Positions 8,991 through 63,509 of a DNA stretch of 64,000 bases are shown in pieces. Source of the DNA: a virus (taxonomy: Duplodnaviria > Caudoviricetes); the IMG/VR virus record IMGVR_UViG_3300037067_027684, positions 128,001 to 192,000 of that record; one strand, 5' to 3'. Position numbers and translations under genes: made by a program. The first letter of the stretch is position 1. The number at the start of each line of letters is the position of its first letter. The notes beneath the pieces are model-generated. The model saw only the letters and a program-made list of their open reading frames with translations. It made no database searches and was not told the DNA's origin.

Positions 8991-9311
8991 CTAAGAACTA
9001 CGCCCGTAATTCTTAAAGAAATTTAAATGTCTCTGCCCTAGTTCGTAGCCTTGATCTGGTACCTTCGGTGATGCTTTTTTCTTCTTGACGCCAGATAGCG
9101 TCTTGATTCCATGTTTCTTCTCGACAACAACTCTGGTTACGGCTGGAGCTATTCTGGCTTGAGGAGATACACCAGCCGTTCTGATGGCTGGTAATTTGTG
9201 CTCAATGACTGGTTTCACTGGAGGGTTAATCGGGATTAATCCTGGATAGATCGGCCTTTGGTTGACGGTCATTAGTTTTAGTGATACCATCTTGGGCATG
9301 GTCTTGAACAT
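8991..9311 (-). CDS. basic hypothetical protein with near-C-terminal ELGQRHLNF motif
   Basis: GGAG SD; degenerate copy of the shared terminal motif. Confidence 0.55.
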   Translation of the reverse strand: MFKTMPKMVSLKLMTVNQRPIYPGLIPINPPVKPVIEHKLPAIRTAGVSPQARIAPAVTRVVVEKKHGIKTLSGVKKKKASPKVPDQGYELGQRHLNFFKNYGRSS

Positions 9312-9358
9312 GTGTTATCTCCGATTACCCAAAGTAATTTTGATGATAGGAGGACCAA

Positions 9359-11089
9359 ATGGAGCAACTTGGAGAGAGAAAGCTGGCTTTCGAGGAGCGG
9401 GAACCTGTTCTCGCCGTGGGCGAGAAGAGGGTTAACAAGAATTGGTTTGGCTTGTCGAATGCTGGTTGGGTAGCAATGAATAAGGCCCGCAGTATGGGGC
9501 ATTTGGTTCGTGAGGCTGTTGCTAATGCTTTTGATGCTAAACCTGCTACTGTCAAATTGTTTTTGGAACCTGGATATATCTGTGTTGAGGATGATTCGGT
9601 TGGATTTTCATCTCCTGAACTTATTTATACGGTTTTTCTGACCGATAAGGAGGATTCCCATCTTCAACGTGGCCGTAAGGGTCGAGGTTTGAAGGAGTTG
9701 TTGGCTGCTGGTAATCAGGCTAACGTGGAAACTGTTGGTTGTACTGTGACCTTTAGCAAAGAAGGCCGTATTGAGGTTGGGAATACTAGGAAGAATGGTA
9801 CCAAGATCGAAGTTTGGGGCGACTGGAAGAATTATGATGTCGAAATAGCTGTTGAGTATCTTCGTACTTTCATTCCTCCGTGCACGCTCATAATCAACGA
9901 CAAGGAGGTTAATCTTCCGGAGTTGGTTGAGACGTTTAAAGCGGAACTTCCTACTGTGGTTTTCTCTAACGGCGCTCAGACTACCAGAACTATTGAGACT
10001 GAAGTTAAACTATATAAGTCTGAATCTATTGATTTTTCCCATCTTTACGAGATGGGTATTCCTATTCAAGTACTCGGAGACAGGTTTAATGTAGATATTC
10101 AACAGCGGGTCCCCGTTAGTGATGATAGGAATACTGCTGATTCCTCGTTCGTGTCGAAGTTGGATGCGGTTATGTTGAAGAATTTTGTGGATCGATGGAC
10201 GCGTGTTGAGTTGATGTCATCTAGGTGGATTTCGAACGGTCTATATTGGGTTGATTCCGATGTTAAGAAGAAATTTGCTGATAAGTTTGTTGATAAAAGA
10301 CCGACTGCTCTTAAATCAACCAATACCAAGGCTAATACTAGACTGAAAGAGCGTGGCTATGAATTGATTGAGACTAATAGCTTGCAATATTCTGTGAAAT
10401 CAGCTTTGGAAGGAAATATTCTAGACGCAGAAGTAATTGCTAAACGTTTGGATTCTGAAGCTCCTGATGGAGTGGTGGTACTTACCGAGCAACATCGTGC
10501 TTTTCAGTCTGTTATTTCTTGGTTGATTAAAGATGCTTTTGATCTTCAATGTGCTGGTGATCATTATATTAGACTTAATCAAGTCACTTTCTTCGCTAAG
10601 GGTGAGGGTATTGATGGGACTCATCAGAGTTGTAAGGTGATTAAAAATCCTGATGATACCAATATTTCTGTCGCAGAGAATAATGGGTCTCTTCCTATGA
10701 ATATTGCTTTTAATGTCTCTCATCCTTCTTTCAACATCGAGAAGCCTTTGAGTTCTGGGGTTATGACTTCTCTGGTTGAGGCTCTTCTCAATTATTGGTG
10801 GGACCCGAATCTGGATCATTGTCCAGATACTCCTTTCTCGGAAGTTGCGAAAATTGCTGGTGCTTTGGCTAGTGCAGTTAGTAGATTGCCTAGGGATATT
10901 CGTGAAGTTACTAAGGTTCATCCTGGTAAGACGACTTTTATTACTTGTGTTGATTGTGGTGTTAAGCGTGAGATTAAGGTTCAGGATGTTCACCAATGTT
11001 CGCGCTGTCTGGAGTGCCAGAGGAAAGCTGCTAGGTTAAGGGCCAAGATGAGGAGGATCAATCGTGAAGCTTTTGGATCAGTTACCTGA
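9359..11089 (+). CDS. GHKL (HATPase_c) ATPase with C-terminal zinc ribbon and N-terminal QLGERKLAF tag
   Basis: Bergerat motifs LVREAVANAFDA, VEDDSVGF, GRKGRGLK, GTKIEV; C-terminal CVDC...CSRCLEC. Confidence 0.85.
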   Translation: MEQLGERKLAFEEREPVLAVGEKRVNKNWFGLSNAGWVAMNKARSMGHLVREAVANAFDAKPATVKLFLEPGYICVEDDSVGFSSPELIYTVFLTDKEDSHLQRGRKGRGLKELLAAGNQANVETVGCTVTFSKEGRIEVGNTRKNGTKIEVWGDWKNYDVEIAVEYLRTFIPPCTLIINDKEVNLPELVETFKAELPTVVFSNGAQTTRTIETEVKLYKSESIDFSHLYEMGIPIQVLGDRFNVDIQQRVPVSDDRNTADSSFVSKLDAVMLKNFVDRWTRVELMSSRWISNGLYWVDSDVKKKFADKFVDKRPTALKSTNTKANTRLKERGYELIETNSLQYSVKSALEGNILDAEVIAKRLDSEAPDGVVVLTEQHRAFQSVISWLIKDAFDLQCAGDHYIRLNQVTFFAKGEGIDGTHQSCKVIKNPDDTNISVAENNGSLPMNIAFNVSHPSFNIEKPLSSGVMTSLVEALLNYWWDPNLDHCPDTPFSEVAKIAGALASAVSRLPRDIREVTKVHPGKTTFITCVDCGVKREIKVQDVHQCSRCLECQRKAARLRAKMRRINREAFGSVT

Positions 11090-11590
11090 TATTACGCCGT
11101 CTAAATATTCAGAGATGTTGAGAGCTAGGAATGAGGTTGTACAACGAAATGCTTCTCGTCGTAAGCGTGGACTGTCAGTGTTGCCGCTTCCTGATAAGCC
11201 TGAGAAGCCTTTGTGTTACGTTGCTTACTCGGATGACGGTACTTATGAGGGGCGGCTTAAGTCCCGTTCGTTGGCTGAGGCTCGTGAGGAAGCACCTGGG
11301 TTTAAGATCGTGGTTGAAGAATGGGTCAATGAAACTTACTAAGGAGAATCATCATGATCACGTATGAAGATAAGACTAAGGTTGATGACATTGAAGCCGC
11401 TAAGGAAGTTATCAAGAAGAATCTGAAGTTTGAGGCTAAGTTTACTGAGAATCGTGTGATTCGATATCTCTTCCAGCAAGATGGGGTATTGTATTTCCGC
11501 GTTAATTTTCACAATACTTCTCGGTCTAATTATATTGATCGGTCGTATTGGCTCGGCGTTTCTGGTGATAAGATTGTCGGAGTGAATTAA
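11064..11590 (+). other. two hypothetical genes (11064-11342, 11354-11590)
   Basis: Co-oriented ORFs with SD sites. Confidence 0.6.
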
Positions 11591-11668
11591 TGAAAGACAT
11601 AAGATTCTATGTTGACTTGATTTAATGGACTTTTTGATTCTTGGTATGTTGATGTCTTAGGAGACTTT

Positions 11669-12625
11669 ATGATAGGCAAAATTGACCTTGACTCAAGAAT
11701 TGACGAAATATCAAGATTAATAGAAGAAAAAAGAACAACTAGAGAGATATCGCTAGTACTAAATATTAGTAGATCAACTCTAATTAATTTCTTGAAGCTT
11801 CATCCAGAATTTAAAATTAAATTGCGAGTGAATTATGATTCCAGACGGTCAGAGGTTGCACGGAAAAATTGGTCTGATCCTAATCATAGAAGGAAGTGGG
11901 AGGAAGCACGCCGGGCACGCCGGTCTCCTGAAAGAATAGCTAGAAAGAATAAAGAAACAGCTAAAGAAAAGTGGGATAAAAGATTACCGGAAATTGAACG
12001 TCTAATTACAAACGGTCTTACTCTCCCTCAAATTGCTAAGGAATTAAATGTTGATTATGGTAACATAGTCGATAGAATCAAAAGATATCCGAATTATTCC
12101 TCTCTTAAGGAGGGGTTATATCGTAATTGGTTGGGGAAAGTAAAATCAAATGAATACAGGACCAAGAGAAGTACTCAAACTAAGTTGTTTTATCAAAAAC
12201 ATCCGGAGGTCCTCCAAAAAATGAAGGAAAAGACTCTCATGATGTTTAGGAATGAAGCCTTTAAGAATAATTTTTTAGATGCGATGTCAAGAATGTGGGC
12301 AAATCAAGATTATCGCAATAAAATGTCAAAAGTTAGTTCGGAGAAGTTCAATCAAAAGCCAGAGTTGAGAGAAAAAGCTCGAAAACATTTCAAGGATTTA
12401 TGGGCTGATCCAGCCTTTTATGGAAAAGTTTTTTCATTAGAAAATAGAACACAAGCATCTAAGAGAATGAAACTTTTATGGCAAGATTTCGAATATCGCA
12501 AAAAAGTAATGACAAACTGTAAACCAATTGCTGATTTTTGGAATTGGCTATCTGACTTTAGTGAAGAAAAACAAACGAAAATTTTAGTGGCAATCCATAA
12601 GAAAAAATGGAAAAGGAAATTCTGA
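11669..12625 (+). CDS. basic DNA-binding protein with two HTH segments and W-x-D-P-x-Y-R-like repeats (homing-endonuclease-associated type)
   Basis: REISLVLNISRSTL and LPQIAKELNVD HTH-like segments; repeats NWSDPNHR, MWANQDYR, LWADPAFY, LWQDFEYR; A-rich composition unlike neighbours. Confidence 0.6.
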   Translation: MIGKIDLDSRIDEISRLIEEKRTTREISLVLNISRSTLINFLKLHPEFKIKLRVNYDSRRSEVARKNWSDPNHRRKWEEARRARRSPERIARKNKETAKEKWDKRLPEIERLITNGLTLPQIAKELNVDYGNIVDRIKRYPNYSSLKEGLYRNWLGKVKSNEYRTKRSTQTKLFYQKHPEVLQKMKEKTLMMFRNEAFKNNFLDAMSRMWANQDYRNKMSKVSSEKFNQKPELREKARKHFKDLWADPAFYGKVFSLENRTQASKRMKLLWQDFEYRKKVMTNCKPIADFWNWLSDFSEEKQTKILVAIHKKKWKRKF

Positions 12626-13455: not shown

Positions 13456-13471
13456 ACTCAGGAACATATTT

Positions 13472-14152: not shown

Positions 14153-14161
14153 TCTTAAACT

Positions 14162-14197
14162 AAGAGGGAGAGAGGTTAAAACCTTGTCTCCCTCTTT
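14162..14197. terminator. hairpin between convergent genes
   Basis: AAGAGGGAGA pairs with TCTCCCTCTT (10 bp). Confidence 0.7.
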
Positions 14198-14716: not shown

Positions 14717-15046
14717 ATGACGGTGAAGATTGAACTCAATGTTGGTGGATTGAACAGGAGTGATAAAGTGGAATCGATTGACTTTCGTCTAACCAAACGT
14801 CTTGGTCAGCTTACGGAGGCCGATGGCGCTGAAGAGACTCCTGGGGATGTTCTGGTTGTGCAGAATCTAGCGAAATATTTGAATGCTTATGGTTCGGAGT
14901 TATTGAAGCATTCTCAGACTGGTAATGTTCGGGAAGCTAGATTGAGGATTATTGAGATTGCTAGCGTTGTGGAGCAGGCTAAGGCTGAGTTGAGTAAATT
15001 GGCTAAGGAAGCTGGTTTACCTGATTTGGAGCTTGGTGGTAAATGA
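14717..15046 (+). CDS. hypothetical protein
   Basis: 109-aa ORF coupled to the next gene. Confidence 0.6.
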   Translation: MTVKIELNVGGLNRSDKVESIDFRLTKRLGQLTEADGAEETPGDVLVVQNLAKYLNAYGSELLKHSQTGNVREARLRIIEIASVVEQAKAELSKLAKEAGLPDLELGGK

Positions 15047-15687
15047 TGCGTTTTGAGAGGGTTCTCGCTGAAGCTTTTGAACGTGCTCTCACTGAGGAGT
15101 ATATCCCTCAGAAAGATGTGGCTACTTGGCGCGATATTGAACGGATGTACGCTGATGCTGGTAAACACCATTGTTTGAGATTGTCTTGTGTGAAGTGTGG
15201 TAATGTTCAGACTTGTAGGTGTCGAGAGCCTAAGGAAGAGAAGGAAGGGATTTGTCCGTATTGTACTGGTGAGTTGTCAGAGTCTATTAATGAGTCCAAA
15301 TGTCCAGCTTGTGGTCAGAATGCTTATGTTGGTTTTAGGGAGGTTGAATGTTCGAATCCTGATTGTAAAAATTTTAAACCTTCGAATACTGGATTATCCA
15401 ATACTTGTTGGTTATGGGATGAGATTACTATTGATGTCACTAGTGTGAAATTTCCAAAGAAATTTTTGGAATTCTGGCGAGCGGGGCGAGACCCAAATAC
15501 TTTCATGATTGAGGTTGATGATTGGTTAGCTTTTAACTCTTTAGACCGTGGTCATGATCGCAATGTTACTGTTAAGGACAGTGTCTATATTCTCCAGGGT
15601 AAGTTCGGTAAGGATTTGCAGTATGTTGTGTGTTGGTCGCCGGTCAGTAGTGATTCTGCTAGGAAGATGGCTGGGACGTTTGCCTAA
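15043..15687 (+). CDS. zinc-finger protein with capsid-targeting-like N-terminus
   Basis: MRFERVLAEAFERALTEE; multiple CxxC pairs; internal LSESINES. Confidence 0.6.
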   Translation: MMRFERVLAEAFERALTEEYIPQKDVATWRDIERMYADAGKHHCLRLSCVKCGNVQTCRCREPKEEKEGICPYCTGELSESINESKCPACGQNAYVGFREVECSNPDCKNFKPSNTGLSNTCWLWDEITIDVTSVKFPKKFLEFWRAGRDPNTFMIEVDDWLAFNSLDRGHDRNVTVKDSVYILQGKFGKDLQYVVCWSPVSSDSARKMAGTFA

Positions 15688-17514: not shown

Positions 17515-18084
17515 ATGAGTTACACTTCTCAAACTGAGGCTGGTTTAAAGTCTCTTCTTATGGATTTATTAGAACAGAAACCCCTGGGTTTCGTTTGGGG
17601 TTTCATGCCTTATGAATCTGAAAAAGAGATTACGATTGCTAAGGGCATGATTGGTCGAACTCGAATTCAAAATCATCCTCCGCTTGTGGTGCCAGTTGAT
17701 CATACTTTCTCACTCAAGCATTTGCTTTTGGATTATGAGCAACCAATACGACCAACAACATGGTATCACGTTTTTGTGATTTGGGATGATGAGGGGAATT
17801 ATGATTTTCGGGCAACTAGATTCGTTCATTGGAGTGATACTCAACATCCTGGTAATGATCGGTATATGAGGTTTCCTTATTATCGTCATATTGCGTCTTA
17901 TTTGACTGATGCTTTTGGGAAAGTTCGTCGGGCTAATACTGACGAATTGCCATTTGCTTGGACACCTCCTGAGGCTTTGGCATCTCCTCCTAAAGCTTGG
18001 ACACCTTACACTAACGCCAAGCCAGAGGGGTCATTTAATACCCCAGAGATGGGTGATAGAACACTCGAACTGGAGGTCTCATGA
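17515..18084 (+). CDS. hypothetical protein with C-terminal EMGDRTLEL tag
   Basis: Ends PEMGDRTLELEVS after a Pro-rich linker. Confidence 0.75.
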   Translation: MSYTSQTEAGLKSLLMDLLEQKPLGFVWGFMPYESEKEITIAKGMIGRTRIQNHPPLVVPVDHTFSLKHLLLDYEQPIRPTTWYHVFVIWDDEGNYDFRATRFVHWSDTQHPGNDRYMRFPYYRHIASYLTDAFGKVRRANTDELPFAWTPPEALASPPKAWTPYTNAKPEGSFNTPEMGDRTLELEVS

Positions 18085-19053: not shown

Positions 19054-19345
19054 ATTGAACGAGGAAAAGACAGATGAATTCCTACGGACCTGCCTTATTA
19101 ATAATGGGATTTATGCTTTTTGTAAGGAAAAATTAGGTTCTAGTAGAATTGGGCAGTTATATGATGGTGAATTTACTGATTTCTTTGCATTGCGAGAGTT
19201 GAGTGATGGTGAATGTCAGATGGACAGGGACGAGATTTGGTCACTTAACACGATGTGGGTTGGGTGGATGTTTGATCGAGTTTATGATGTGGTTGAGGAT
19301 GATAATACTGTGACTGAGCTTGGAGATAGAGACCTTGAACTTTAA
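19043..19345 (+). CDS. hypothetical protein with C-terminal ELGDRDLEL tag
   Basis: Ends TELGDRDLEL*. Confidence 0.7.
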   Translation: MIYRLNEEKTDEFLRTCLINNGIYAFCKEKLGSSRIGQLYDGEFTDFFALRELSDGECQMDRDEIWSLNTMWVGWMFDRVYDVVEDDNTVTELGDRDLEL

Positions 19346-23204: not shown

Positions 23205-23627
23205 CTACTTCTCTGCCTCTGTAATTGCTTCCTTTAAACGCTTAATGACAACTGGGAGCGTCGTGTCAATGTCACGTGGCTGCTTATTTAAACCGCCCTC
23301 TAGGCAGACTATTGAAACTTTCGCTAGGTCGATAAAACGCTTCTTGTCAGCTTTGGAGCACCTTGGTAAGTTAGAAGCGGTAGCTGCGTTGCAGTCGGCT
23401 AAATACAATGCCACAATCATCCAGTATTCTAGTTCCTTGCTACGAGGCTCTGGCTTAAAGCGCCATTCATAACGGCTGTCATCTTTGTTGAGTTGACTAA
23501 GAAATTGGTGTACCGGAGAAACAATTGAGTCGTCTTTGACAATGTTGTAATCTGTCCAATCATCGGTTGGATGGAAATCAGCAACCTTGTCAGCTAGTTC
23601 CTTGCGCCTTCGGTATTGTAGGGTCAT
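23205..23627 (-). CDS. hypothetical protein
   Basis: Last gene of the long minus-strand run. Confidence 0.6.
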   Translation of the reverse strand: MTLQYRRRKELADKVADFHPTDDWTDYNIVKDDSIVSPVHQFLSQLNKDDSRYEWRFKPEPRSKELEYWMIVALYLADCNAATASNLPRCSKADKKRFIDLAKVSIVCLEGGLNKQPRDIDTTLPVVIKRLKEAITEAEK

Positions 23628-23974
23628 TCAAATCCCTCCTCGTATTCTCGTTTCCTTTTATTCAAAATATCACAAATAGGACATTGGAGTTTATTGAAGA
23701 TTTCTGAATTTGGATTCTTTTTAACGATCATAGGATAACTGTAATATTCATTCTCAAAACGAATGCGATAATCCCTATCCCGCTTAGGCTGGAAAAACGC
23801 AGTATTAGCTCCCCCACTAACCTCTCCACAGTCTATGACTGACGGCGGAGAAACCAAGAAACCATCTGCATCCGTTGAACCTCCACCAACCAGAGTCCTA
23901 TAGACTGTTTGTGGAGGTTTGGGTGGTTCAGGAGGAACTCCTAGATCTAGTTCCCTATCGCCTAACTCAGGCAT
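23624..23974 (-). CDS. hypothetical protein with N-terminal ELGDRELDL tag
   Basis: Starts MPELGDRELDLGVPPEPPKPP. Confidence 0.75.
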   Translation of the reverse strand: MPELGDRELDLGVPPEPPKPPQTVYRTLVGGGSTDADGFLVSPPSVIDCGEVSGGANTAFFQPKRDRDYRIRFENEYYSYPMIVKKNPNSEIFNKLQCPICDILNKRKREYEEGFE

Positions 23975-23992: not shown

Positions 23993-24229
23993 TCAAAGGA
24001 TATTCTCCTCAATCCATTTGGCTTCAGCCATTAAAGCTTCAGATCGAGTTTCGAACGGACCCATGACGGGTCCAGAGCTTGGGCCAAGATCAGCGGTCCA
24101 GCGGCCATCTGAGGTTGGTTCAACGTGTGAAGCACGCTTGATTTCGGACTTCCCAACATTCATCAAACCACGGAGTTTGTCAGAGTAAATGAATTGAACC
24201 GTCCCATTGGGAGAAATTTTGATCTTCAT
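23993..24229 (-). CDS. small conserved protein of the DUF1257/DUF2997 gene cluster
   Basis: IKRASHVEP...WTADL...GPFETRSEAL.AE..W pattern, recalled from such clusters. Confidence 0.6.
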   Translation of the reverse strand: MKIKISPNGTVQFIYSDKLRGLMNVGKSEIKRASHVEPTSDGRWTADLGPSSGPVMGPFETRSEALMAEAKWIEENIL

Positions 24230-24725: not shown

Positions 24726-24926
24726 TCATGATTGACCTCCTTGGTCTAGATATTGTTGGTTCTCGACTGCCTGCTGTTGCTCGTAGTATTCACCCTTCAG
24801 CTTCTCCTTGGTGGTTGAGCCAAGTGCATTTTCAAGCTTTCGAGTGAGGTCCTTACAGCCTGTGCCTTTGACACCATCGACATCGATGGTTGTCACACCC
24901 TTTGGGGAAATTGAAATCTTAATCAT
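24726..24926 (-). CDS. DUF2997 family protein
   Basis: ISISPKGVTTIDVDGVKGTGCKDLTRKLENALG...EYY. Confidence 0.8.
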   Translation of the reverse strand: MIKISISPKGVTTIDVDGVKGTGCKDLTRKLENALGSTTKEKLKGEYYEQQQAVENQQYLDQGGQS

Positions 24927-25287: not shown

Positions 25288-25641
25288 CTAGGTCAAGTAG
25301 AGTTCCACAGTTCCATCAACCAGTTGTCGCTGTTCGACGGTGTAGCCAGCGTTGTGGGCCTCTTGGATGGAGACTTCCTTGGCATAGTCTTGGGTTAGCT
25401 TGTCGAATTGTTTTTGGTCTCCCCATGAGCCGTTGAAGTTATCCATGGAGGCGTCTCCATTATTAATGACAATGGGGTAGCGCCAACCAGGGATTTCGAT
25501 ACTGATATCACCAGATGCTGAGCTTGAGTAGAATTTCTGGGTAACAGCTCCCTTTGTCATTTTGTAATTCAACCTATCACAAACCTTTTTGAGGATTGTA
25601 TGGTTCTTAAATTGTGTCTTGACTGTCACTGTGTGGGACAT
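25288..25641 (-). CDS. DUF1257 family protein
   Basis: MSHTVTVKTQ...PGWRYPIV...DNFNGSWGD...LTQDYA...GYTV...DGTVEL. Confidence 0.8.
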   Translation of the reverse strand: MSHTVTVKTQFKNHTILKKVCDRLNYKMTKGAVTQKFYSSSASGDISIEIPGWRYPIVINNGDASMDNFNGSWGDQKQFDKLTQDYAKEVSIQEAHNAGYTVEQRQLVDGTVELYLT

Positions 25642-33232: not shown

Positions 33233-33589
33233 CTATGGATTTGGGTCTGCGAAATTGAACTGTATTTCTTTGCGGTTTGCCCGTTCGGGATTAGATTTCC
33301 ATCTTTCTTTGAAGTACCATTTGAAGGCGTGTTGTTCATCGTCAAATTCCAACCCTTCACCTTCAGCATCTTCAAAGATCCAACCTTCCAGACGGCTAGA
33401 ATATTTGGTGCAGGGTCCCAAACCTGTGTCGTCCATAAACAAAATTCGATCCCCGATGATGGACTCGACACCTTCAAGGAGGTCGCCCCATTTGATTTGC
33501 TCACCTTCTAGGAGGAAGATGATTTGTTTGTTGATTAGTTTGGCTGTGAAGCCTTTTCGATTGAGTAGGTCGATTTTCTCTTTGGTCAT
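33233..33589 (-). CDS. hypothetical protein
   Basis: AGGAG SD; downstream of the 62-bp element copy 2. Confidence 0.6.
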   Translation of the reverse strand: MTKEKIDLLNRKGFTAKLINKQIIFLLEGEQIKWGDLLEGVESIIGDRILFMDDTGLGPCTKYSSRLEGWIFEDAEGEGLEFDDEQHAFKWYFKERWKSNPERANRKEIQFNFADPNP

Positions 33590-42687: not shown

Positions 42688-43083
42688 TTATGAATTTCTG
42701 TCCAGGTCATATGCTTGCCCTCGTGTTGTCATCCACTTTCGGTAGACATCTTCTACACAATCCGTTGGCTTCACTTTGACTAACGTTTCGTTGAACTTCA
42801 TCCAAACATCTTCTTCTACTGCTCTTTTGACGAATTGGATAACCTCGTCGGTAGCTTTGCCAAATTCTTCTCCAAAGTTTGGGGTCACAACCCACTCCAT
42901 ATTATCGTTTAGATCGAGAGATGCAAACATTGGTTTGAAGGTGTTCAGATAATCTACGTCAACTCGTGGGAATAGTAGTCTCTTGATTCCATCTGGGGTG
43001 AGTTTGGTTTTAGGTATTGGTGCTGTGACATTGGTTTGTGTTAATGTTTCTCCAATGTCTAGTGTTCTGTCTCCTAGTTCCAT
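42688..43083 (-). CDS. hypothetical protein with N-terminal ELGDRTLDI tag
   Basis: Starts MELGDRTLDIGE; paralog of the adjacent gene (EDVWMKFN vs EDTWLKFN). Confidence 0.8.
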   Translation of the reverse strand: MELGDRTLDIGETLTQTNVTAPIPKTKLTPDGIKRLLFPRVDVDYLNTFKPMFASLDLNDNMEWVVTPNFGEEFGKATDEVIQFVKRAVEEDVWMKFNETLVKVKPTDCVEDVYRKWMTTRGQAYDLDRNS

Positions 43084-43092: not shown

Positions 43093-43419
43093 CTAGATTG
43101 TGTCGTTGGTTGAAATCCAGTCATTATAATAAGCGTAAGTATCAAGTAATGGGTCATCATTAAGGTCAATTCGAAGCATACATCTGTTGAACTTTAACCA
43201 TGTGTCTTCACCTGATTCTCGTGCATAGATTCTGCTATTCCGGACTGCTTCTAGAATTGGTGTGCCACCTAATGGTTCAAGGATGTGCTTGCCGTTATCG
43301 AATATGATTTGGTATAATCCTAACCTAGTCAGCGTTTCTCTACTCGCGTAGAATTTACGCTTTATGGGTTGGGGTTGTGGTGGTACCCCAAGGTCCAATG
43401 TTCTATCGCCTAGTTCCAT
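43093..43419 (-). CDS. hypothetical protein with N-terminal ELGDRTLDL tag
   Basis: Starts MELGDRTLDLGVPPQPQP. Confidence 0.8.
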   Translation of the reverse strand: MELGDRTLDLGVPPQPQPIKRKFYASRETLTRLGLYQIIFDNGKHILEPLGGTPILEAVRNSRIYARESGEDTWLKFNRCMLRIDLNDDPLLDTYAYYNDWISTNDTI

Positions 43420-49529: not shown

Positions 49530-50176
49530 ATGTCAGATAAATGCCAGTCAGAAGAGCCAGAACCAAAATTGAGAAGTTTGGGTGACATTTCTGGTTTAAT
49601 AAAGGGGATATCTAGTAGGTTAGTTAATATTAATGTACGAGCAAGCCACTTACGTCGTAGTCTGATCGACTTTCCTGATGCCAATAAGGTAGCAGCTAAA
49701 GAAGCCAACATTGGCAAGCAGGATACTACCTTCCTCTTCGCTACTCTTCATGATCTTGGGGCAATTAGGATTGAACTTAACGAGCTTGAAAGTCATTTGG
49801 ATGCGCTTGAGAATGGTTGTAATTGGCGTGATGTAAAACAGAAAGATTAAAGGGAGATCACATGACAGACCGACCTGAAGTAGAGAAAAAGTCAATCCAT
49901 CAAATTCTGCGTGAACAGGAAGATATCTGTAAGAGCTTGTCACATCTAAACAGGCGCTTAACTAATATAAGGACTAATCTTTTTGGATACGAGGACTTCG
50001 AAGAACCACATCCTGAAAGCTTCCTAGATAGGTCCTTGGACCTTATTAAAATCAGTAAGGATAATCTTAGTTGTCTCGATCACCAATTGAGAATTCTTGA
50101 GAATGTTTGTGGTGTTGCTGCTTGTGGTGAGGAGGGTATGGCAGCGACTGGTCCGCAAATTCCTAGGCGAATCTAG
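49530..50176 (+). other. two paralogous helical proteins (49530-49850, 49862-50176)
   Basis: Similar ends: LESHLDALENGC vs LDHQLRILENVC. Confidence 0.55.
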
Positions 50177-50564
50177 AGAATCTAAGCGGCGGATACCTAG
50201 GAGATGAGTTGTGATCAATCAGTATCCATCTGTTTTCTACTTTGATCCAGAATGAATGTCCTGGTTGAAGAAAAACTTCTCCAAGTCTGAATGGGCCTGA
50301 GAAAACACCTGGATATTCTGGGTTCGTTCCAATTCCGACGAATAATTTTGCTGTCACGTATTGCCCTCGCACTGCTTGACGGATTTCATCGTCTGTTAAG
50401 CGTGGGTCGATGTTGTCTGATTCGATGATTTTTGATATATCGATGTTGTGCACACTCTTAAGGTCATAAATTGTTGCTTGTGATGGATATGCTGAGTAAT
50501 CGAGTTCGGTCGAAACTTTTACCTCTTTGACTCCTAGATCTAATGTTCTGTCACCTAATTCCAT
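50163..50564 (-). CDS. hypothetical protein with N-terminal ELGDRTLDL tag
   Basis: Starts MELGDRTLDLGVKE; contains YDLKSVHNID. Confidence 0.75.
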   Translation of the reverse strand: MELGDRTLDLGVKEVKVSTELDYSAYPSQATIYDLKSVHNIDISKIIESDNIDPRLTDDEIRQAVRGQYVTAKLFVGIGTNPEYPGVFSGPFRLGEVFLQPGHSFWIKVENRWILIDHNSSPRYPPLRFSRFA

Positions 50565-51335
50565 GATTAAACTCCAGGTTCTACCTTACGCTCAAGCAGG
50601 AAAACCACAATACCACCGTGATCATGTGTTCCTGATCTATGTGGTGAAATCATGTTAACGACTCGCCAGCCTTTGCTTAGGAAGCTATTAATAGAATCAG
50701 GACATTCACCTCTTGCATCAAGGTCATAAGTGACAACTAATTGTTCCATAATAGGAGGACGAGGTCCACCGAGTGGGGGAGGACGGGGTGGTGGAGGGAC
50801 TACTCTTCGTTCATTCATGTTGACCCTTTCGCCTCTTCTTCATCTGGCACCCGCACAAATACCAAATATAATAACAATCGCCACAACCTCGCTTTAGTGG
50901 CATAAAACTCCCGTCATAGTCCGGATGCTCTTTACAAGGCTTATATTTAGGTTTTCTGCTCAAACGCCAACTCCTATCTTGCCACCCACCAGACAGCATA
51001 GGTGTAAACACAGAAGCACACAGCAACCGCCCAAATGAGATGAATCACTGCCGCTGGTCCAAATATCCTCCCAGCGTTTTCAAGGAAGAGCCTGTTCCAT
51101 TCGCGTTTCTTATCGTTATCTAGCTGAATCGCACCAGCATCAGGGTGCTCACTTGGAAGCTTATAACCCTCAAAGCTTCCTCGAATTTCTGGTGGTATTG
51201 CAGCTAATGTCTTTATGACTGAGCATCGAGACTCTTCCTTTGCGGCTTCTGCTCGATCAGCTTGAGCCTTTGCTTCCAATAACTTGGCATCAGCCCCATC
51301 TCTTAATTCACCGTGTTTGATCGGTGTCCAGTTCA

Positions 51336-51656
51336 TTACCCCTCCAGAATTAGTTGGCGTTCGCCCAACTCTGCTACTTTTTCGGGTGGTTGTGGTATGA
51401 TGAGTCTGATATATGTTTCAGCAATGCCTCTACGAATAACTGGTAAAAAATCATTGGCGAATTTTGTAGAATCTCCATATCCAATTAATTGAGCGCCATA
51501 CCAAGAGCATTCTAACATCAAAGCAAACTTCTCACGATCTGTGACTGGAATCTCTGCGCACTTTGATATTACAGGCCACCATTTTCTTAGACACTCTGAG
51601 GGAGTAGCTTTCATTTCAGACATCAAAGCTTGGCATTCAGCGGGAGTTTTCATCAC
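51336..51656 (-). CDS. protein resembling the N-terminus of T4-type major capsid protein, with C-terminal ELGERQLIL tag
   Basis: LRKWWPVI...EI...ALMLE...PVIRR; ends AELGERQLILEG. Confidence 0.65.
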   Translation of the reverse strand: MMKTPAECQALMSEMKATPSECLRKWWPVISKCAEIPVTDREKFALMLECSWYGAQLIGYGDSTKFANDFLPVIRRGIAETYIRLIIPQPPEKVAELGERQLILEG

Positions 51657-51946
51657 TCCTCCAGAATAAGTTGGCGTTCGCCCAACTCTGAAGCCGGAAC
51701 TTTTACTGCGTCATGGATTCTACACCAACCGTATTTGCGCATATCATCTTCGTTTAAATTACTAATGTCTGTTTTACCATCGGTAACTATGACGAGGCAT
51801 TTAACGGGCAATTTCTTTAGAGCGAGTCCAATTTGACTAACCAAATGCCTATATGACTCTCTACTGTCATTTACTTTAACATGAATGACGCTCCTGTCAT
51901 TCGCGTAATTACAGACTTCTGTGACTATTGCGTCAAGCATGTTCAC
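51653..51946 (-). CDS. hypothetical protein with C-terminal ELGERQLIL tag
   Basis: Ends SELGERQLILEE. Confidence 0.75.
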   Translation of the reverse strand: MNMLDAIVTEVCNYANDRSVIHVKVNDSRESYRHLVSQIGLALKKLPVKCLVIVTDGKTDISNLNEDDMRKYGWCRIHDAVKVPASELGERQLILEE

Positions 51947-58574: not shown

Positions 58575-59156
58575 TTAGTTCCCCTCCATAATCAATTTTC
58601 TATCGCCAATTTCTGCATTTGGTGTTCTAGATCCAGGGATTAGTCGCCCGAGGACTTTTGGGTATGAGTATGCGCATTGAAATATCCCAGTTTTAAGGAT
58701 TGTTTCCATCTTGTAGATTACTAATTTTGGGGCGTTGATTATCATTCCTTTGTCATTTACGACATTCCCATTGAGGCATGGGTGATTGATCAGTGGCATT
58801 GCTTCAACTAGTAACTTATCCCAATTTTGATGTAGGAAGCAAATATCATCATCTGCTTTGATGACGTATTCATATTTCGACATCCACGAGTAACTTGGGT
58901 TCATACGTAGACAATCTACATAGGAGTACCAATTCATGTATTCAACGTCGTGATGGAATATGCAGTGGGCGGTTGGTAGTCTATCTTCTGGGAAGGTTAC
59001 GTCTCTTAGGGCTGTTTTGTCCAGCATGAATATTCTTGCGACTGGGGAGTCTGCTGAGTGCAATGTCTGTCGATCAACAGATACTGTCTCGATCAGTGAG
59101 TCGTCCATTTCGACCCAGTGGTTACAGGTTATCTTTACTAGAATTAGTACTTTCAC
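58575..59156 (-). CDS. hypothetical protein with KADDD segment and C-terminal EIGDRKLIM tag
   Basis: YEYVIKADDDICF (glycosyltransferase-like segment); ends AEIGDRKLIMEGN. Confidence 0.6.
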   Translation of the reverse strand: MKVLILVKITCNHWVEMDDSLIETVSVDRQTLHSADSPVARIFMLDKTALRDVTFPEDRLPTAHCIFHHDVEYMNWYSYVDCLRMNPSYSWMSKYEYVIKADDDICFLHQNWDKLLVEAMPLINHPCLNGNVVNDKGMIINAPKLVIYKMETILKTGIFQCAYSYPKVLGRLIPGSRTPNAEIGDRKLIMEGN

Positions 59157-60372
59157 GATTTCTTTTGAAATCCACCATGGGCCTGTAGGTTGAGGGTGTC
59201 CATTTGGCGTCGGTAAGCTTGTTTGACTGCAAGAAAATGTCGTTCCATGGCCTCAATCTGTACTCGTAGTTCGCTCATGCTGTCTTGGTTGAGGTTTTTG
59301 ATGCCTGGAATCAATCCGTTTTCTAGGGCGTAAAGCTCTAATTCGGCTCGACCAGCTAAATCCAAAATCAGTTTGTCAACGGCTGGATCACCTTGGCAAG
59401 GTTCACTCATTTTCTTTCTCCTTAGTGTCAGATACTCTCGATTGTTCGACTACAGCTTCAACATCTTTCTTTATCTCTTGTAGAGCTGACATAAAGGCTG
59501 CTGTGTCTTCTTCATACGTGGTGTCAGGGGTGCACCATCTAAATTCGATGCCAAGTCTTTTCATTTCTGGGCTAATGTCTTTGGTGTGTAGGTTGAATAT
59601 TGTGTTGAATTTGAATTCTGGTCCTGCTTTGGAGTTATAGATGGTTTCTGCTCTGTTAATTAGTTCGAGTAGTTTCTTCATGCATCCTCCTTGTTAAACG
59701 TCTTGGGCTAGGGCTTCTATTCTTGAGGCTAGGTCTCCTAGTTCGTTGGCTTCTTCCATGAAAGATTGCCAATTATATTTTGGCTCTTCTCCTTTTAGCT
59801 TAGATATTTGGTTTGCTGCTTTCATTGCTGCTATTCGTGCGTTACATTGATCTGCTTGGGTTCTTAGTGCTATGATTTTGCCGACGTAGTAATTCATGGG
59901 TTACTCACCTCCCAAAGCCGCAATCATCGTGTCTAGAATGTTGCTGTACGCAACACTGGCTCTCCTAGCCTCCGAGAAGAGGGCAGGCAACATTGAATGC
60001 TCTATGTGGTCAATATTTTGACTTCTCTCGTTTCATTCATCGTTTTCTCCTACTTTCCTTACTGGAAACATTTGATCCCATTCTTAAGGATGTAATCGAC
60101 CTTCTTGTAAGTCTCCCACAATGTCAAAGCATCACACAACAGTTTCTGGCGAACGTTCGGTGGAATACGTTTAAATGAAGTAATTTTCTTGGGCTTAAAA
60201 TCACCCCATTCTGCGTCTAACTCTTCGAACCACAGGAATTCAGCAATCTTAATAAGCTCTTTCTTGTGGGGGTGTTTGGCCATGAAGGTTGGACTGGGAG
60301 AATAGGTTCGTAGGTCCATTTTTCTGATTGCTTCGGACCAACCTTCAAGCCAATTTTTACAAGCTTTGTTCT

Positions 60373-61173
60373 TCATTGTAATTCCTTCTTGACGTGGACG
60401 ATTTCAACTTGGGTTGAAACTCCGGACCACTCTTTCAGGTACACTGAGGTATCGATGCTGGTTGCTTCGAAAATGATACCTGTTTGGTCTTTAAACTTCT
60501 CGTATTCTTTATTCAAAACCTGTTGGTAATTCATACATCCACTGTAATGGAATGGACAGGATCGTTGGTCTACAATAAAGGTTGCAAACTTCACATATTG
60601 TAAGGCGATTTCTGCAAGCGCGTATGTGGATTTACCACCGGTATAGTTCAGGCCGGTGAAGTTGGTTGGCTTGATTTTGAGGAAGGGTGGGTTGCTGATT
60701 ACCTCGTAGGCTGAGCCAATTTGTTCCCAAGTTTTGGCGTCAAAGGCATCCCCTAGAATCCATTTGGCGTCTGGGAGGATTCGTTTGCCTACTTCTATGA
60801 AGGTTGGGTTGTTTTCAACACAGATGTGTTTTGCCCCACCGCCTCCCATTATTTCTTCTGCGAAGCTTAATGCTCCAATTCCTGCACATACGTCCACAAT
60901 GGTTCCGATCCCAATTACTTCTAGAGAAAAATCTCTTGCTAAGTCATAAGGGGTGAAGAATGTTCCTGTTTTGCCAACATTGTGGGAGGCTTGTGGGTTC
61001 CAGTTTTTGAGGATGTAGATTTTCTCGTCTATGGTTAGGGGTTTGTCTTGTTTGTGACATTTTACCCAATCATAGGAGTCTGTTTTTTCGTGATAGAAGA
61101 GGCATGCTGTGCCGTCAACTAATTGTTGGGCTTGTTCGTGATTTTTGGTTGCTATTTTGCTTAATTTAGACAT
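60373..61173 (-). CDS. SAM-dependent methyltransferase, probably DNA amino-methyltransferase
   Basis: GTFFTP (motif X), VDVCAGIG (motif I), VEN, GDAF, ISNPPF (motif IV). Confidence 0.88.
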   Translation of the reverse strand: MSKLSKIATKNHEQAQQLVDGTACLFYHEKTDSYDWVKCHKQDKPLTIDEKIYILKNWNPQASHNVGKTGTFFTPYDLARDFSLEVIGIGTIVDVCAGIGALSFAEEIMGGGGAKHICVENNPTFIEVGKRILPDAKWILGDAFDAKTWEQIGSAYEVISNPPFLKIKPTNFTGLNYTGGKSTYALAEIALQYVKFATFIVDQRSCPFHYSGCMNYQQVLNKEYEKFKDQTGIIFEATSIDTSVYLKEWSGVSTQVEIVHVKKELQ

Positions 61174-62124
61174 TTTTCTCCTTAACCGGCCAGAGTTTGG
61201 GGAATTTACCATCACGCATTTGATTTACTCGTCGTGTGATCAATTCGATGTGATCTGTGTTTAGCCCTTCACCAAGAAGGGAGACTAGGGCTTTGCACCA
61301 TAATTTGTCTCGTTCAAGGCATTCTTGTGGCTCACTGGTTTTGTCGTTAACGAATTTAAACTCTACCATCAAATCAGGGAATCCTTGGTCGATTGTGGAT
61401 TCAAGGCTCACTACAAGTTGCGCAACCGTAAGTCTCTGTGGGATGTCCGGTTCGGGTGGGTACGGGAAATCTTTTGGGTCGTATGAGTTTACAATTGGTC
61501 TGTCTTTCATTCTTTCACCTTTAGCACTTTGGCTGTCCCTTCATCCAAATCAAGTTCAATCCTGATGTTCTCACCCCATTCGATAAATTTTTGGGCAACT
61601 TCCTTAATCTTTTCGCACTTTTCTTCGGATTCTTCGGAGCCGTGCATTTCTATTTCGTTTTCGCAGGCGTAGGACACAACATCTGGTGTTTTGAACCTGA
61701 GGCATACTTTACCATATTTCTTCTGAGATACTCCAGTGGGCGAGTTTGCCTTTTCTTTAAGAATAGTTTCTGGAAGGTAGACGCAATAAGAGTTGCATTG
61801 GTCGAACGCTACCTCGACTTCTCTGCCAACTGGATTAGGGTAATCCTTCTTGAGGTCTTGGACATTTAGGATGCGAAATGTAGATCCTTGGAGTCTGCCT
61901 GTGCTGAGTATTGCTTGGTATTCTTTGGTTGCTTCGTAGATTACGACGTGTGCGTGTTCTATCATTGGTCTCTCCTTCGTATGTTCTTTACTAGTTCAGC
62001 CATTTCTTTGAGCCATGGTTTGGGGATTGCTTTGCCTGCTTTCAGGTATCGGTTTCCTGCTTCGATGATTTCAAGCAAGCGTTCTTCCTCCGCTATCCAG
62101 CGGGGTCTGAGTCCTAGTGGAGGC

Positions 62125-62361
62125 TTAGTAGGTTGCTGCATCTCTGCGATTCCAGCAGTCAGCCATCTTTTGTTTGAGTTGGTCGGTATTTTGACCTTTT
62201 TCATGGAGGTCAAATTCATCGTAAATCACATGCATCGACCCGAAACAATCCTTATTCTTGCAGACTATATTGAGTGATGGGAATGATTTCATATTCCCGT
62301 ATGTTTCGGTGAATTTGGCTTCTGATCCACAGTGGGGGCATGGCTTTAGGGTCGGTTCCAC
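62125..62361 (-). CDS. Lar-like (restriction alleviation) zinc-finger protein
   Basis: LKPCPHCGSEA...IVCKNKDC. Confidence 0.55.
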   Translation of the reverse strand: MEPTLKPCPHCGSEAKFTETYGNMKSFPSLNIVCKNKDCFGSMHVIYDEFDLHEKGQNTDQLKQKMADCWNRRDAATY

Positions 62362-62846
62362 GTTATTTCCTCTTTAACGTTCTGGATGCCATCCACATAG
62401 CTGTATCAATTGTTTCGTAACGGAGGTCGGACATTTGATCCCGATCATTGGCATTCCAATCTTTTGGTATTACTAGGTGTTTGTTGGCTTCAGCTAGCCA
62501 TTGGCTGAGCTTGACATAATTATGCTTCTCCCAATAGTGACCGTGGTTGATTATGTAGGAATGTTCATCGAACTTGGTGAAGTCAATTCCATCGTGATAA
62601 CCACGGATGAACTTCATTAGGTCTTTCTTGGTGAACTTCTTCATTTTGGGCTTCATTTTTCCTCCTTAATAACTGAGACTTTGGGTACCCAGACTGCTCC
62701 TTTTTCGCCTTTGAATTTGACGAAAATCTTATTGTCGGTTCCGGCCCAATAGACTTTACCGGTTTTCTTTCCGTCTGCTGTTTTGATCTTGTCACCTTGG
62801 GTGAGGATTACTTGTTCTGGTTTCATCTTGATCCTTTCTTGTTAGC

Positions 62847-63509
62847 TCACTCATTCTTTAGCTCATTCATCATGGACCTGAGGCGCTCAAATTCGTTGTC
62901 TAAGGAGGCTCGATCTTCAATCCTGCCTGTACTTGGGTTGACCCATCTTAGTGTCTGTGCTGGTGGTCTTATTTCTGGTTTGGGTGTGGTTGGTTTATTA
63001 GGTCTAAACCAGAATTTACGAAAACGCCCCATTATAGTTCCAAACCAAGTTTTTCGATAATAATCAACTTCTGTTTCTGCTCCATCAATTAGATCCCTAA
63101 CGCGGGCATCTTCTTCAGCTTCGGCTGCGGCATCCCTAACGCGAGCATCCTCTTCAGCTTCGGCTGCGGCGATAAGGGCTTGCTGACGAATCCTACGTAA
63201 ACGATCCTTAATTTCTCGATTTTCTCTGTCCCTCTGAAGTATCCTCGTCATTTGGACAGCAGCATCATCAGGTCGTGGGAGTTGAACTACGGAACATGGT
63301 GTTCTTAATTCAGTTTGATCAACAACTGCCTTCTTCGTCTCGGATTCAGCAATAATACTATCAACAGCTTTGGAGAACTTCTCCAAAACTTCTAACTGAA
63401 CAGCCTTGTTGAGATTCTCAAAACTTTTAGTGAGCTTGGTGATCTGCTTAGTTAGTTCCTCAGATGGATTCTCACCAAAATCAAGCTTCCTATCACCAAG
63501 CTCACCCAT
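62847..63509 (-). CDS. coiled-coil protein with N-terminal ELGDRKLDF tag
   Basis: GAGGT SD before MGELGDRKLDFGE. Confidence 0.7.
   Translation of the reverse strand: MGELGDRKLDFGENPSEELTKQITKLTKSFENLNKAVQLEVLEKFSKAVDSIIAESETKKAVVDQTELRTPCSVVQLPRPDDAAVQMTRILQRDRENREIKDRLRRIRQQALIAAAEAEEDARVRDAAAEAEEDARVRDLIDGAETEVDYYRKTWFGTIMGRFRKFWFRPNKPTTPKPEIRPPAQTLRWVNPSTGRIEDRASLDNEFERLRSMMNELKNE
63093..63170 (-). repeat. 39-bp in-frame tandem repeat (AAAEAEEDARVRD x2)
   Basis: Two near-identical consecutive units. Confidence 0.9.

Follow-up and report, generated by a model that had tools for sequence, protein, structure and literature searches.

Why should a large phage place the same short peptide at the ends of proteins that have little else in common? 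The question is raised by a 64,000-nucleotide stretch of phage DNA (the whole of the sequence analyzed, here termed the window), in which the tag E-L-G-[DE]-R-x-L-x-[LFI] recurs on mostly unrelated proteins. All 12 copies listed in an earlier sequence-only reading were found at their coordinates and in their frames (Table 1). Further copies are located outside the window, on an AAA+ ATPase, a DUF6744 protein, two WGR proteins and others, and about 19-20 copies were found in the 247-kb phage genome as a whole. In nearly all of them, no more than 5 residues separate the tag from a start or a stop. Six are N-terminal and about half are C-terminal, several of the latter with two to three trailing residues, and Tyr is absent. 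The phage copies carry the core R-x-[LIVM]-x-[LIFM] on a flexible segment, no more than a few residues from the terminus, and Pro-rich linkers were seen in several carriers.

Table 1. Tag carriers, the internal match and tag-less module proteins in the window (window coordinates).
Feature	Position	Strand	Tag (position)	Remarks
106-aa ORF	8991..9311	-	Weaker copy E-L-G-Q-R-H-L-N-F (9018-9044), 8 residues from C-terminus	No Pfam or PHROG family matched
GHKL-type ATPase, 576 aa	9359..11089	+	N-terminal M-E-Q-L-G-E-R-K-L-A-F (9365-9391)	Tag on ~27-aa extension; Pfam HATPase_c_3; ATG preceded by TAGGAGG ribosome-binding site; copy begins Q-L-G-E-R and was found only with a relaxed pattern
189-aa ORFan	17515..18084	+	C-terminal E-M-G-D-R-T-L-E-L-E-V-S (18046-18072)	TGA stop; tag unchanged in 95-97% relative
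ORFan, ~100-117 aa	18992..19345	+	C-terminal E-L-G-D-R-D-L-E-L (19316-19342)	TAA stop; start codon uncertain; positive coding score
116-aa ORFan	23624..23974	-	N-terminal M-P-E-L-G-D-R-E-L-D-L-G (23942-23968)	Tag followed by Pro-rich linker; directly downstream of DUF1257/DUF2997 cluster
78-aa conserved module protein	23993..24229	-		No tag; I-S-P-x-G...F-I-Y...R-A-S-H-V-E-P type; receptor candidate
DUF2997 protein, 66 aa	24726..24926	-		No tag; PF11211, 53.5 bits, E = 6e-15; receptor candidate
DUF1257 (Ycf35-like) protein, 117 aa	25288..25641	-		No tag; PF06868, 27.4 bits, above cut-off; favoured receptor candidate
Internal match I-G-D-R-I-L (IGDRILFM)	33440..33457	-		44 residues into 118-aa ORF; probably chance, left out of tag count
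131-aa ORFan	42688..43083	-	N-terminal M-E-L-G-D-R-T-L-D-I-G (43054-43080)	AGGAG ribosome-binding site
108-aa ORFan	43093..43419	-	N-terminal M-E-L-G-D-R-T-L-D-L-G (43390-43416)	Tag followed by Pro/Gln-rich linker
133-aa ORFan	50163..50564	-	N-terminal M-E-L-G-D-R-T-L-D-L-G (50535-50561)	GGAG ribosome-binding site
106-aa ORFan	51336..51656	-	C-terminal E-L-G-E-R-Q-L-I-L-E-G (51345-51371)	Tag preceded by Pro-rich linker
97-aa ORFan	51653..51946	-	C-terminal E-L-G-E-R-Q-L-I-L-E-E (51662-51688)	
193-aa ORFan	58575..59156	-	C-terminal E-I-G-D-R-K-L-I-M-E-G-N (58587-58613)	Part of minus-strand gene run with stop/start overlaps
220-aa ORFan	62847..63509	-	N-terminal M-G-E-L-G-D-R-K-L-D-F-G (63477-63503)	Search of 1.8 billion representative proteins gave one real homologue, at 85% identity

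The tag is a real short linear motif on which selection acts at the peptide level. The pattern [LMIV]G[DE]R.L had 15 matches in the six frames of the 246,684-bp genome, 13-14 of which lay within 5 residues of a stop codon or of an ATG with an upstream ribosome-binding site of the GGAG type. In a set of 434 genes 14 matches were observed compared to 0.91 after residue shuffling, and terminal matches numbered 10 against an expected 0.08 (shuffle maximum 2, n = 1000; binomial P = 3e-9), which bears out the terminal position noted in the earlier reading. A degenerate DNA pattern for E-L-G-[DE]-R-x-L matched the 0.25-Mb phage genome eight times and its reversed control not at all; the same pattern gave 7 matches in a 5.5-Mb bacterial genome and 8 in the reversed control. 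The codons vary synonymously, as had been stated: Leu at -3 is encoded by CTT, TTG, TTA or CTA, Gly by GGT, GGC or GGA, Arg by AGA, AGG, CGC or CGT, and Leu at +2 by six codons. This does not hold for the adjacent genes 51336..51656 and 51653..51946, whose ELGERQLILE copies have about 40 nt of near-identical DNA in common, indicating a recent copy. At the peptide level Gly, Arg and Leu are invariant, the most variable position in the phage immediately precedes the conserved Leu (T, Q, K, V, M, D, E), and hydrophobic and acidic residues alternate downstream of Arg. Where C-terminal copies continue into L-E-[GE], these residues overlap both the GGAGG ribosome-binding site and the ATG of the following gene.

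The carriers do not form one homologous family. All-against-all BLASTP found only two related pairs, the two WGR proteins and the paralogues 42688..43083 and 43093..43419 (27% identity over 125 aa), and the rest match in the tag alone. Homologues of a carrier domain elsewhere were also found to be untagged, as expected for a portable peptide: of 98 GHKL homologues, 96 begin directly at the conserved NWF..GW..NAGR block and have no N-terminal extension. The extension was present in only two relatives, one at 96% and one at 37%, the latter starting with M-R-E-L-D-L. The untagged homologues are located outside the module described below, and the sole distant homologue with a tag-like start adjoins a DUF1257 gene.

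The phage also encodes a Ycf46-like AAA+ ATPase (genome positions 116999-120103), the C-terminal end of which is A-R-T-L-D-I-G. Its homologues almost universally terminate in [AG]-G-R-Q-L-[DE]-[LI] with an invariant Arg (alignment of 30 sequences), and the tail R-x-hydrophobic-[DE]-hydrophobic was seen on Ycf46-like AAA+ proteins of cyanobacteria, Myxococcales, Verrucomicrobia, actinobacteria and many phages. In 80 bacterial loci the same kind of tail was found as a terminal Q-R-[ML]-E-F in cyanobacteria, E-R-K-L-E-L in Myxococcales and R-R-M-E-[FL] in Verrucomicrobia. More than 40 DUF6744 homologues terminate in [PG]-R-x-[LI]-[DE]-[LIV], the WGR proteins of loci L020, L024 and L028 in G-x-R-x-L-[DE]-L, and DUF6744 and WGR partners with this tail are present in viral modules including that of the phage studied here. 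The tag is an extended form of this ancient tail and not a phage invention; its ancestry lies with the tails of the AAA+, DUF6744 and WGR proteins. We found no published description of such a tail or tag system. The Ycf46-type family of Cdc48-like ATPases is itself widespread and uncharacterized.

Matched tails also occur in pairs. In locus L096 G-F-R-G-L-E-F-D is paired with G-F-R-N-L-E-L-G-D-D, and in L106 G-G-R-I-L-D-I with G-G-R-T-V-D-F. The lineage-matched second tail is in some bacteria carried by a rhomboid-family or HHH-domain membrane protein; in Verrucomicrobia, rhomboid-family proteins ending in R-I-[RS]-R-L-E-L adjoin AAA+ proteins with the tail R-R-M-E-[FL]. In five cyanobacterial genomes R-M-E-F terminates Ycf46 itself only; the tail may therefore have begun with a role inside the ATPase and not as a multi-client hub. 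The AlphaFold2 model of the AAA+ has a tandem p97/Cdc48-like fold that aligns with D1-D2 of p97, Cdc48 and Rix7 (Rix7 N-terminally deleted). A degenerate AAA-like D1 makes up the front half, there is no p97-type N domain and no MIT domain, and the tail is disordered (pLDDT <50).

The bacterial AAA+ gene is directly followed by a DUF1257 gene. When tails were compared with adjacent DUF1257 (Ycf35) and/or DUF2997 genes at 78 bacterial loci, 67 loci had both, 3 the tail only, none the neighbour only and 8 neither (Fisher P = 7e-9, phylogeny uncorrected), although the loci are not phylogenetically independent and the co-occurrence could reflect a subfamily difference instead of a tail-receptor pair. 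The phage has the tailed Ycf46-like AAA+ together with DUF1257 and DUF2997 above the Pfam cut-offs; it encodes two DUF1257 and three DUF2997-like genes in two sets, one of which adjoins a tagged gene. The DUF1257 protein of the window was modelled by AlphaFold2 with a pLDDT of 84. No recognizable protease fold was found in DUF1257 or DUF2997, nor did the DUF1257 model match the Ntn-hydrolase fold. The C-terminus of Verrucomicrobia DUF2997 is somewhat tail-like (R-[LI]-D-Q-R-x), so DUF2997 may be a client and not the receptor. The 78-aa protein aligns with counterparts in L020, L024, L015, L027 and L028, and matched no Pfam family.

The tag is probably a docking peptide for one receptor site in the Ycf46-like AAA+ module. 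Being an extended copy of the tail of the AAA+ and its partners, it most likely plugs its carriers into one putative docking site. A tail on a flexible linker would be read by a single receptor site of the module, the favoured receptor being the tag-less core protein DUF1257 (Ycf35) with DUF2997, and the alternative a site on the AAA+ ring. The phage has copied the peptide onto the GHKL ATPase and about a dozen ORFans, at either terminus, and the tagged proteins would thereby be recruited to, or compete for, one remodelling machine. We infer the binding, its partner and the effect of recruitment from these comparisons. Of the earlier proposal, a docking or addressing motif that recruits diverse cargo to one hub, the portable peptide-selected motif on unrelated proteins stands; of the hubs that it named, the AAA+ unfoldase direction alone fits, since the Ycf46/Cdc48-like AAA+ module has this motif as its signature tail.

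The AAA+ could instead recognize the peptide directly, by its pore or D1-like domain, as a degron or substrate tag for unfolding or turnover, with its own tail as an auto-regulatory pseudo-substrate. The link to a Cdc48/p97-like unfoldase, the location on exposed and flexible protein ends, N- or C-terminal like ClpX and Lon degrons, and the many small ORFans among the carriers, for which timed removal is plausible, agree with this. We nevertheless find it rather unlikely: it would be strange for the AAA+ and its conserved partners DUF6744 and WGR to retain a degradation signal over such great evolutionary distances, the phage genome, a very divergent one and the only one covered by this search, had no match to PF00227 (proteasome) or PF00574 (ClpP), and the co-occurrence with DUF1257/DUF2997 would be left unexplained. 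A homotypic zipper, in which tags pair by an amphipathic beta-strand (L-x-L / L-E-L-E) and co-assemble without a dedicated receptor, would explain the tag on both ATPase and partners and is consistent with the alternating residues past Arg. However, an invariant Gly and Arg together with the conserved prefix E-L-G indicate specific recognition over generic strand pairing, and cyanobacteria have the tail on one protein per genome, which makes a zipper very improbable.

Phage proteins might also be docked onto a conserved host protein such as the beta sliding clamp. Many unrelated proteins carry clamp-binding motifs, at the N-terminus in some and the C-terminus in others. Like the tag, the beta-clamp motif (QL[SD]LF / QLxLxL) and the T4 gp45-binding tails are portable elements of 5-6 residues; the AAA+ family consensus G-R-Q-L-D-L includes Q-L-D-L, resembling Q-L-[SD]-L-F, and DNA-related functions recur among the carriers and their neighbours (WGR, GHKL and an NAD-dependent ligase nearby). 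The conserved Gln followed by Leu is missing from the tag, however, in agreement with the sequence-only reading that the clamp motif is not matched: the Gln-equivalent position is the most variable one, and the cyanobacterial Q-R-M-E-F tails are in a different register. Neither PF00712 nor PF09116 had a match in the phage genome, so this search, confined to the phage, found no gene for a beta-clamp or gp45-type clamp, and the tail follows DUF1257/DUF2997, not replication genes. The chance of a host hub is thus slim, and clamp binding is unlikely. Capsid targeting is also unlikely, and a signal loading carriers into the virion or a phage-made compartment is the least probable of these readings. 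The Pro-rich linkers and terminal position recall encapsulin cargo-loading peptides and the T4 capsid-targeting sequence, and the L-G-x-x-x-L spacing is, we presume, loosely like that of encapsulin targeting peptides. However, the tail is present on Ycf46-type ATPases of free-living, capsid-less cyanobacteria, Myxococcales, Verrucomicrobia and actinobacteria, which argues against the capsid, prohead or phage-compartment hub suggested before; smaller phages place the module among replication and not structural genes, and the carriers here lie within arrays of small non-structural genes. A T4-type capsid-targeting sequence or prohead-protease leader, which is N-terminal only, sits on proteins inside the virion, is followed by an [LI]-x-E cleavage site and is confined to viruses, was rejected, as it had been in the earlier reading, because C-terminal copies make up about half of the total and cellular Ycf46 proteins share the tail.

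Docking onto one site of an AAA+ module has parallels in known systems. The HbYX/GQYL docking tails of proteasome activators (PAN/Rpt, archaeal Cdc48, Blm10/PA200; mycobacterial Mpa and Bpa) are likewise short conserved tails on flexible linkers, carried by an AAA+ ring and by unrelated proteins, and one partner receives all of them in the same pockets; the fold of the AAA+ here is Cdc48-like and its tail is disordered. In contrast to those C-terminal tails, the phage tag R-x-L-[DE]-L lacks the penultimate Tyr, and its N-terminal copies and trailing residues indicate that a free carboxylate is not needed. The proposed partner DUF1257/DUF2997 also differs in having no recognizable protease fold. 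The C-terminal tail of HslU (acidic, Leu, small residue, Arg, hydrophobic, Leu) inserts into HslV, docking and activating a partner encoded by the adjacent gene, and is not known to be copied onto other proteins. It is a peptide of similar flavour, and the position of the bacterial DUF1257 gene is comparable, whereas HslV is an Ntn-hydrolase. The SHP box, VIM and VBM of p97/Cdc48 cofactors and the MIT-MIM system of Vps4 also bring diverse cofactors to a classic-clade AAA+ ATPase by one linear motif, but there the ATPase is without the motif and the sequence pattern differs, and the AAA+ here lacks the N domain bound by SHP box, VIM and VBM. Derlins, rhomboid pseudoproteases with a C-terminal SHP box, parallel the tailed rhomboid-family proteins beside the Verrucomicrobial AAA+.

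The sequence-only reading had described a portable terminal peptide, E-[LMI]-G-[DE]-R-x-L-x-[LIFM], on about 12 proteins of the window, which covers bases 128001-192000 of a 246,684-bp IMG/VR virus record. A six-frame scan of the window with the pattern E-[LMIV]-G-[DEQ]-R-x-L-x-[LIFMV] found 11 of the 12 listed copies at exactly the places reported, while the copy of the GHKL ATPase, Q-L-G-E-R-K-L-A-F, was found with the core pattern [LMIV]-G-[DE]-R-x-L. In six frames of the whole genome this core occurs 15 times. Seven of these copies lie 0-5 residues ahead of a stop codon, six or seven lie 2-3 residues past an ATG preceded by a GGAG-type ribosome-binding site, and one is clearly internal. 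Among 434 genes called by coding potential the core was observed 14 times, compared to 0.91 in residue shuffles. Terminal enrichment was borne out, with 10 terminal copies against 0.08 expected (maximum 2 in 1000 shuffles; binomial P = 3e-9), and the 10 copies are an undercount, some N-terminal carriers having been called from their longest possible start. For some small carriers it is uncertain where the gene begins. A degenerate DNA pattern for E-L-G-[DE]-R-x-L gave 8 matches in this genome and 0 in the reversed control. The same pattern gave 7 matches against 8 in the control in a 5.5-Mb bacterial genome, the one holding the closest relative in the bacterial collection (L028), so the tag shows no expansion there.

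The aligned copies have G at position -2, D or E at -1, R at 0 and L at +2 in 14 of 14 cases, L at -3 in 12 and E at -4 in 10; positions +1 and +3 are variable, and L, F, I or M is found at +4. Many synonymous codons are used at the conserved residues, in agreement with the earlier statement on codon variation. Shuffle enrichment and codon profile together led us to reject chance as the source of the copies. A DNA repeat was likewise rejected, except for two adjacent E-L-G-E-R-Q-L-I-L-E copies: with about 40 nt of nearly the same DNA in common, they are a recent copy. The two genes are otherwise dissimilar, and within the shared stretch lie the GGAGG ribosome-binding site of the next gene and its overlapping ATG; recombination may here copy a cassette of tag plus gene junction. 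Behind C-terminal copies, the trailing residues are encoded by DNA that also holds the ribosome-binding site and start codon of the following gene. Amber read-through was rejected: the stops of the five C-terminal copies in the window are TGA or TAA, and TAG was found only in a WGR copy outside the window. Weaker copies are an N-terminal M-E-L-G-N-R-T-L-I-L, the end A-R-T-L-D-I-G of the AAA+ ATPase, a second, internal copy within one WGR protein, P-D-R-E-L-D-L ahead of the acidic, Pro-rich end of the DUF6744 protein, and the end G-E-R-H-L-E-L of one uncertain ORF.

The carriers had been called mostly unrelated. In an all-against-all BLASTP this held for all but two pairs, the matches extending over the 9-15 tag residues only; the exceptions, which are homologous, are two WGR proteins and the products of two adjacent genes. 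Pfam matches among the carriers are to GHKL ATPase, WGR, DUF6744 and AAA, the last of these domains being split by an intein. Ten small carriers matched no Pfam or PHROG family, and a search of 1.8 billion representative proteins with one of them gave one real homologue only. The virus itself is very divergent, with few PHROG matches and no megablast match of 15 kb of the window to GenBank phages. An exact degenerate pattern for M-E-L-G-D-R-x-L-D-L found no other contig in IMG/VR.

Coordinates of features in the window, elsewhere in the virus genome and in a close relative
Feature	Position	Strand	Remark
NAD-dependent DNA ligase	776-2734	+	full-length, untagged; PHROG 3869, E = 6e-130
GHKL ATPase	9359-11089	+	N-terminal tag
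Site matching the TnpB genes of relative L013	~14758-15683		only ~0.6-0.9 kb of other sequence
Two IS605-type TnpB (OrfB/Cas12f-like) genes	L013:15169-17928		relative 95-97% identical
Tagged gene	23624-23974		directly follows the second partial set
78-aa protein	23993-24229		second partial set
DUF2997 protein	24726-24926	-	second partial set
DUF1257 protein	25288-25641	-	second partial set
Homologous carriers, adjacent genes	42688-43083; 43093-43419
Adjacent E-L-G-E-R-Q-L-I-L-E junctions	51320-51420; 51637-51737	-
Module outside the window	genome 116999-125559	+	AAA+, DUF6744, DUF1257-like gene, two DUF2997-like genes, WGR
AAA+ ATPase of this module	L008:8999-12100 (genome 116999-120103)	+	intein with LAGLIDADG domain, residues ~347-828

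The weak copy on the AAA+ ATPase, a Ycf46-like and Cdc48-like protein, was found to be old. The best 120 homologues of the ATPase are about 510-550 aa long and come from phages and metagenomes; in almost all of them a short linker leads to a terminal [AG]-G-R-Q-L-[DE]-[LI] or something very similar, and the Arg is invariant in a 30-sequence alignment. At about 40% identity, 80 loci from bacterial genomes carry the same tail in lineage-specific dialects: A-E-Y-Q-R-[ML]-E-F in cyanobacterial Ycf46, E-R-K-L-E-L or G-R-I-E-L in Myxococcales, R-R-M-E-[FL] in Verrucomicrobia, R-K-I-E-F in Planctomycetes and G-G-R-x-V-[DE]-F in actinobacteria. The AlphaFold2 model of the ATPase (pLDDT 84) places an active AAA domain behind a degenerate AAA-like one, and aligns with D1-D2 of p97, Cdc48 and Rix7. 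The last 11 residues have a pLDDT below 50, and the tail is therefore predicted to be free. An orthologue of 555 aa in a close relative is 97% identical and lacks the intein, so gain or loss of the intein was recent.

In bacteria the DUF1257 (Ycf35) gene lies directly downstream of the AAA+ gene, and outside cyanobacteria a DUF2997 gene comes after it. Distant viruses, namely marine contigs of 318 and 531 kb, Rhizobium phage RHph_I4 and a Samunavirus, have a larger set of AAA+, DUF1257, DUF2997, a small protein with an R-A-S-H-V-E-P motif and a WGR protein. The WGR protein of the marine viruses ends in G-A-R-V-L-E-L, and one of these viruses has a third protein ending in A-R-K-L-E-L-D. With hardly an exception, homologues of the DUF6744 protein finish in [PG]-R-x-[LI]-[DE]-[LIV], in some cases with an acidic extension behind it. 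In Mycobacterium phage Corndog the member of the set that was established is the AAA+, with the tail V-R-V-L-D-L. Untagged GHKL homologues sit outside any such module; the only distant GHKL homologue starting with M-R-E-L-D-L adjoins a DUF1257 gene, with an AAA gene nearby. PADLOC and NCBIfam gave the module proteins only generic AAA similarity (IetA, CDC48, FtsH), far under the cut-offs. In the two marine contigs, which are very large and virus-like, the module was seen beside zf-PARP, SET-domain, Prok-RING and poly(A)-polymerase-like genes.

The tail was found to track the neighbouring genes. In the 78 bacterial loci whose flanking DNA was long enough, a DUF1257/DUF2997 gene lies downstream of 67 AAA+ genes with the tail and is missing from 3, whereas none of the 8 AAA+ genes without the tail has one (Fisher P = 7e-9, uncorrected for relatedness). 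The tail-less AAA+ came from Armatimonadota, one proteobacterial MAG, two Verrucomicrobia and one unclear KSB1 locus. In several bacterial loci a second protein carries a tail in the dialect of the ATPase of that locus. Four Verrucomicrobia have such a tail on rhomboid-family membrane proteins, one further locus (L096) has it on a 157-aa protein and a Gordonia MAG has it on an HHH-domain membrane protein. Since these second tails co-vary with the ATPase dialect, the sequences suggest that both are read by one co-evolving site. In the Verrucomicrobia (L051, L054, L085 and L087) the rhomboid-family gene is located about 1-1.5 kb upstream of the ATPase gene and its product ends in R-I-[RS]-R-L-E-L; this parallels the recruitment of p97 by Derlin, a rhomboid pseudoprotease, in ERAD. 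In real ORFs of five cyanobacterial genomes no protein beyond Ycf46 ends in R-M-E-F, and use by multiple clients therefore seems to be a feature of viral modules and some bacterial ones.

Our tentative reading, held with rather low confidence, is that of an undescribed tail-and-receptor system extending from cyanobacteria and, judged by the gene names ycf46 and ycf35, probably plastids to jumbo phages. The C-terminal peptide of Ycf46 would dock onto Ycf35 (DUF1257), which the neighbouring gene encodes, alone or together with DUF2997, and viruses would have made the peptide a portable address label for either terminus, by which about 20 otherwise unrelated proteins, among them DNA-binding WGR proteins and a GHKL ATPase, are wired into a single remodelling hub. 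In the mechanism that we propose, a flexible terminal peptide would be read by one site of the Ycf46/DUF1257/DUF2997 machine, the peptide probably being a turn (L-G-[DE]-R) that leads into a short strand (x-L-x-hydrophobic). The N-terminal copies and the copies with trailing residues show that the peptide needs no free carboxylate. The ATPase, its ancient partners DUF6744 and WGR, the GHKL ATPase and about 12 ORFans of this phage would be brought to, or compete for, the same hub. DUF1257, DUF2997 and the 78-aa protein are the conserved module members that are never tagged, and we therefore favour them, with DUF1257 as first choice, as the putative receptor. Complex prediction of monomeric DUF1257 and DUF2997 with residues 1-36 of the tagged protein beside the second partial set gave ipSAE values of 0.00 and 0.01 (mark 0.32), which speak neither for nor against docking. 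DNA-binding modules among carriers or neighbours (WGR, HHH, zf-PARP in marine viruses, Ku in Corndog) hint, speculatively, at DNA-associated remodelling as the task of the hub.

The same observations bear on other functions of the tag. It is possible that the tag is a degron for the ATPase, but this is hard to square with a tail kept for so long on the ATPase itself and on its conserved partners. A clamp-binding motif would depend on a Gln-equivalent position that is here the least conserved one, and a clamp gene was not found in the phage. A signal for targeting to a capsid or compartment is at odds with the presence of the tail in free-living bacteria. Homotypic pairing of tag with tag, in place of docking to a receptor, is conceivable though unlikely.

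Shared docking tails of the same kind are found in the proteasome (HbYX, GQYL), HslUV, sliding clamps and the cofactors of p97 and Vps4. The literature searched yielded no mention of this motif, of a link between it and Ycf46/Ycf35/DUF2997 or of about 20 proteins bearing it at one terminus or the other, and no functional work on Ycf35/DUF1257, DUF2997 or the Ycf46 tail. In cyanobacteria and algal plastids, Ycf46 and Ycf35 have long been known as conserved genes without an assigned function, and a conserved terminal peptide that tracks DUF1257/DUF2997 genes offers a direct and cheap handle on the partners of the ATPase. The tag also defines a client list of about 20 otherwise unapproachable phage ORFan proteins, and a single machine is suggested as the place where they act. 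As the N-terminal copies show, the label is orientation-tolerant and transplantable, and it would be a candidate synthetic recruitment tag.

The DUF1257 fold has no clear PDB match: Foldseek gave no match to the model with E <= 0.001, and the best VIA-align Z was about 5 (KA1 / AMPK C-terminal-like), within the noise range. In the DUF1257 alignment the start M-S-H-[FTV] is almost invariable, and Tyr, Asp, Trp and Gly in the middle of the protein are nearly invariant. The strict conservation of the N-terminus suggests a functional N-terminal Ser/His. DUF2997 proteins, of about 65 aa, have a beta-hairpin and a helix, with an acidic tail that is disordered. Several viral and myxococcal members have Gly-Gly at or just before the end (G-V-G-G, G-G-Y or Q-G-G-Q-S), where the verrucomicrobial proteins instead end in R-[LI]-D-Q-R-x. 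Gly-Gly ends beside a Cdc48-like ATPase recall ubiquitin-like or Pup-like modifiers.
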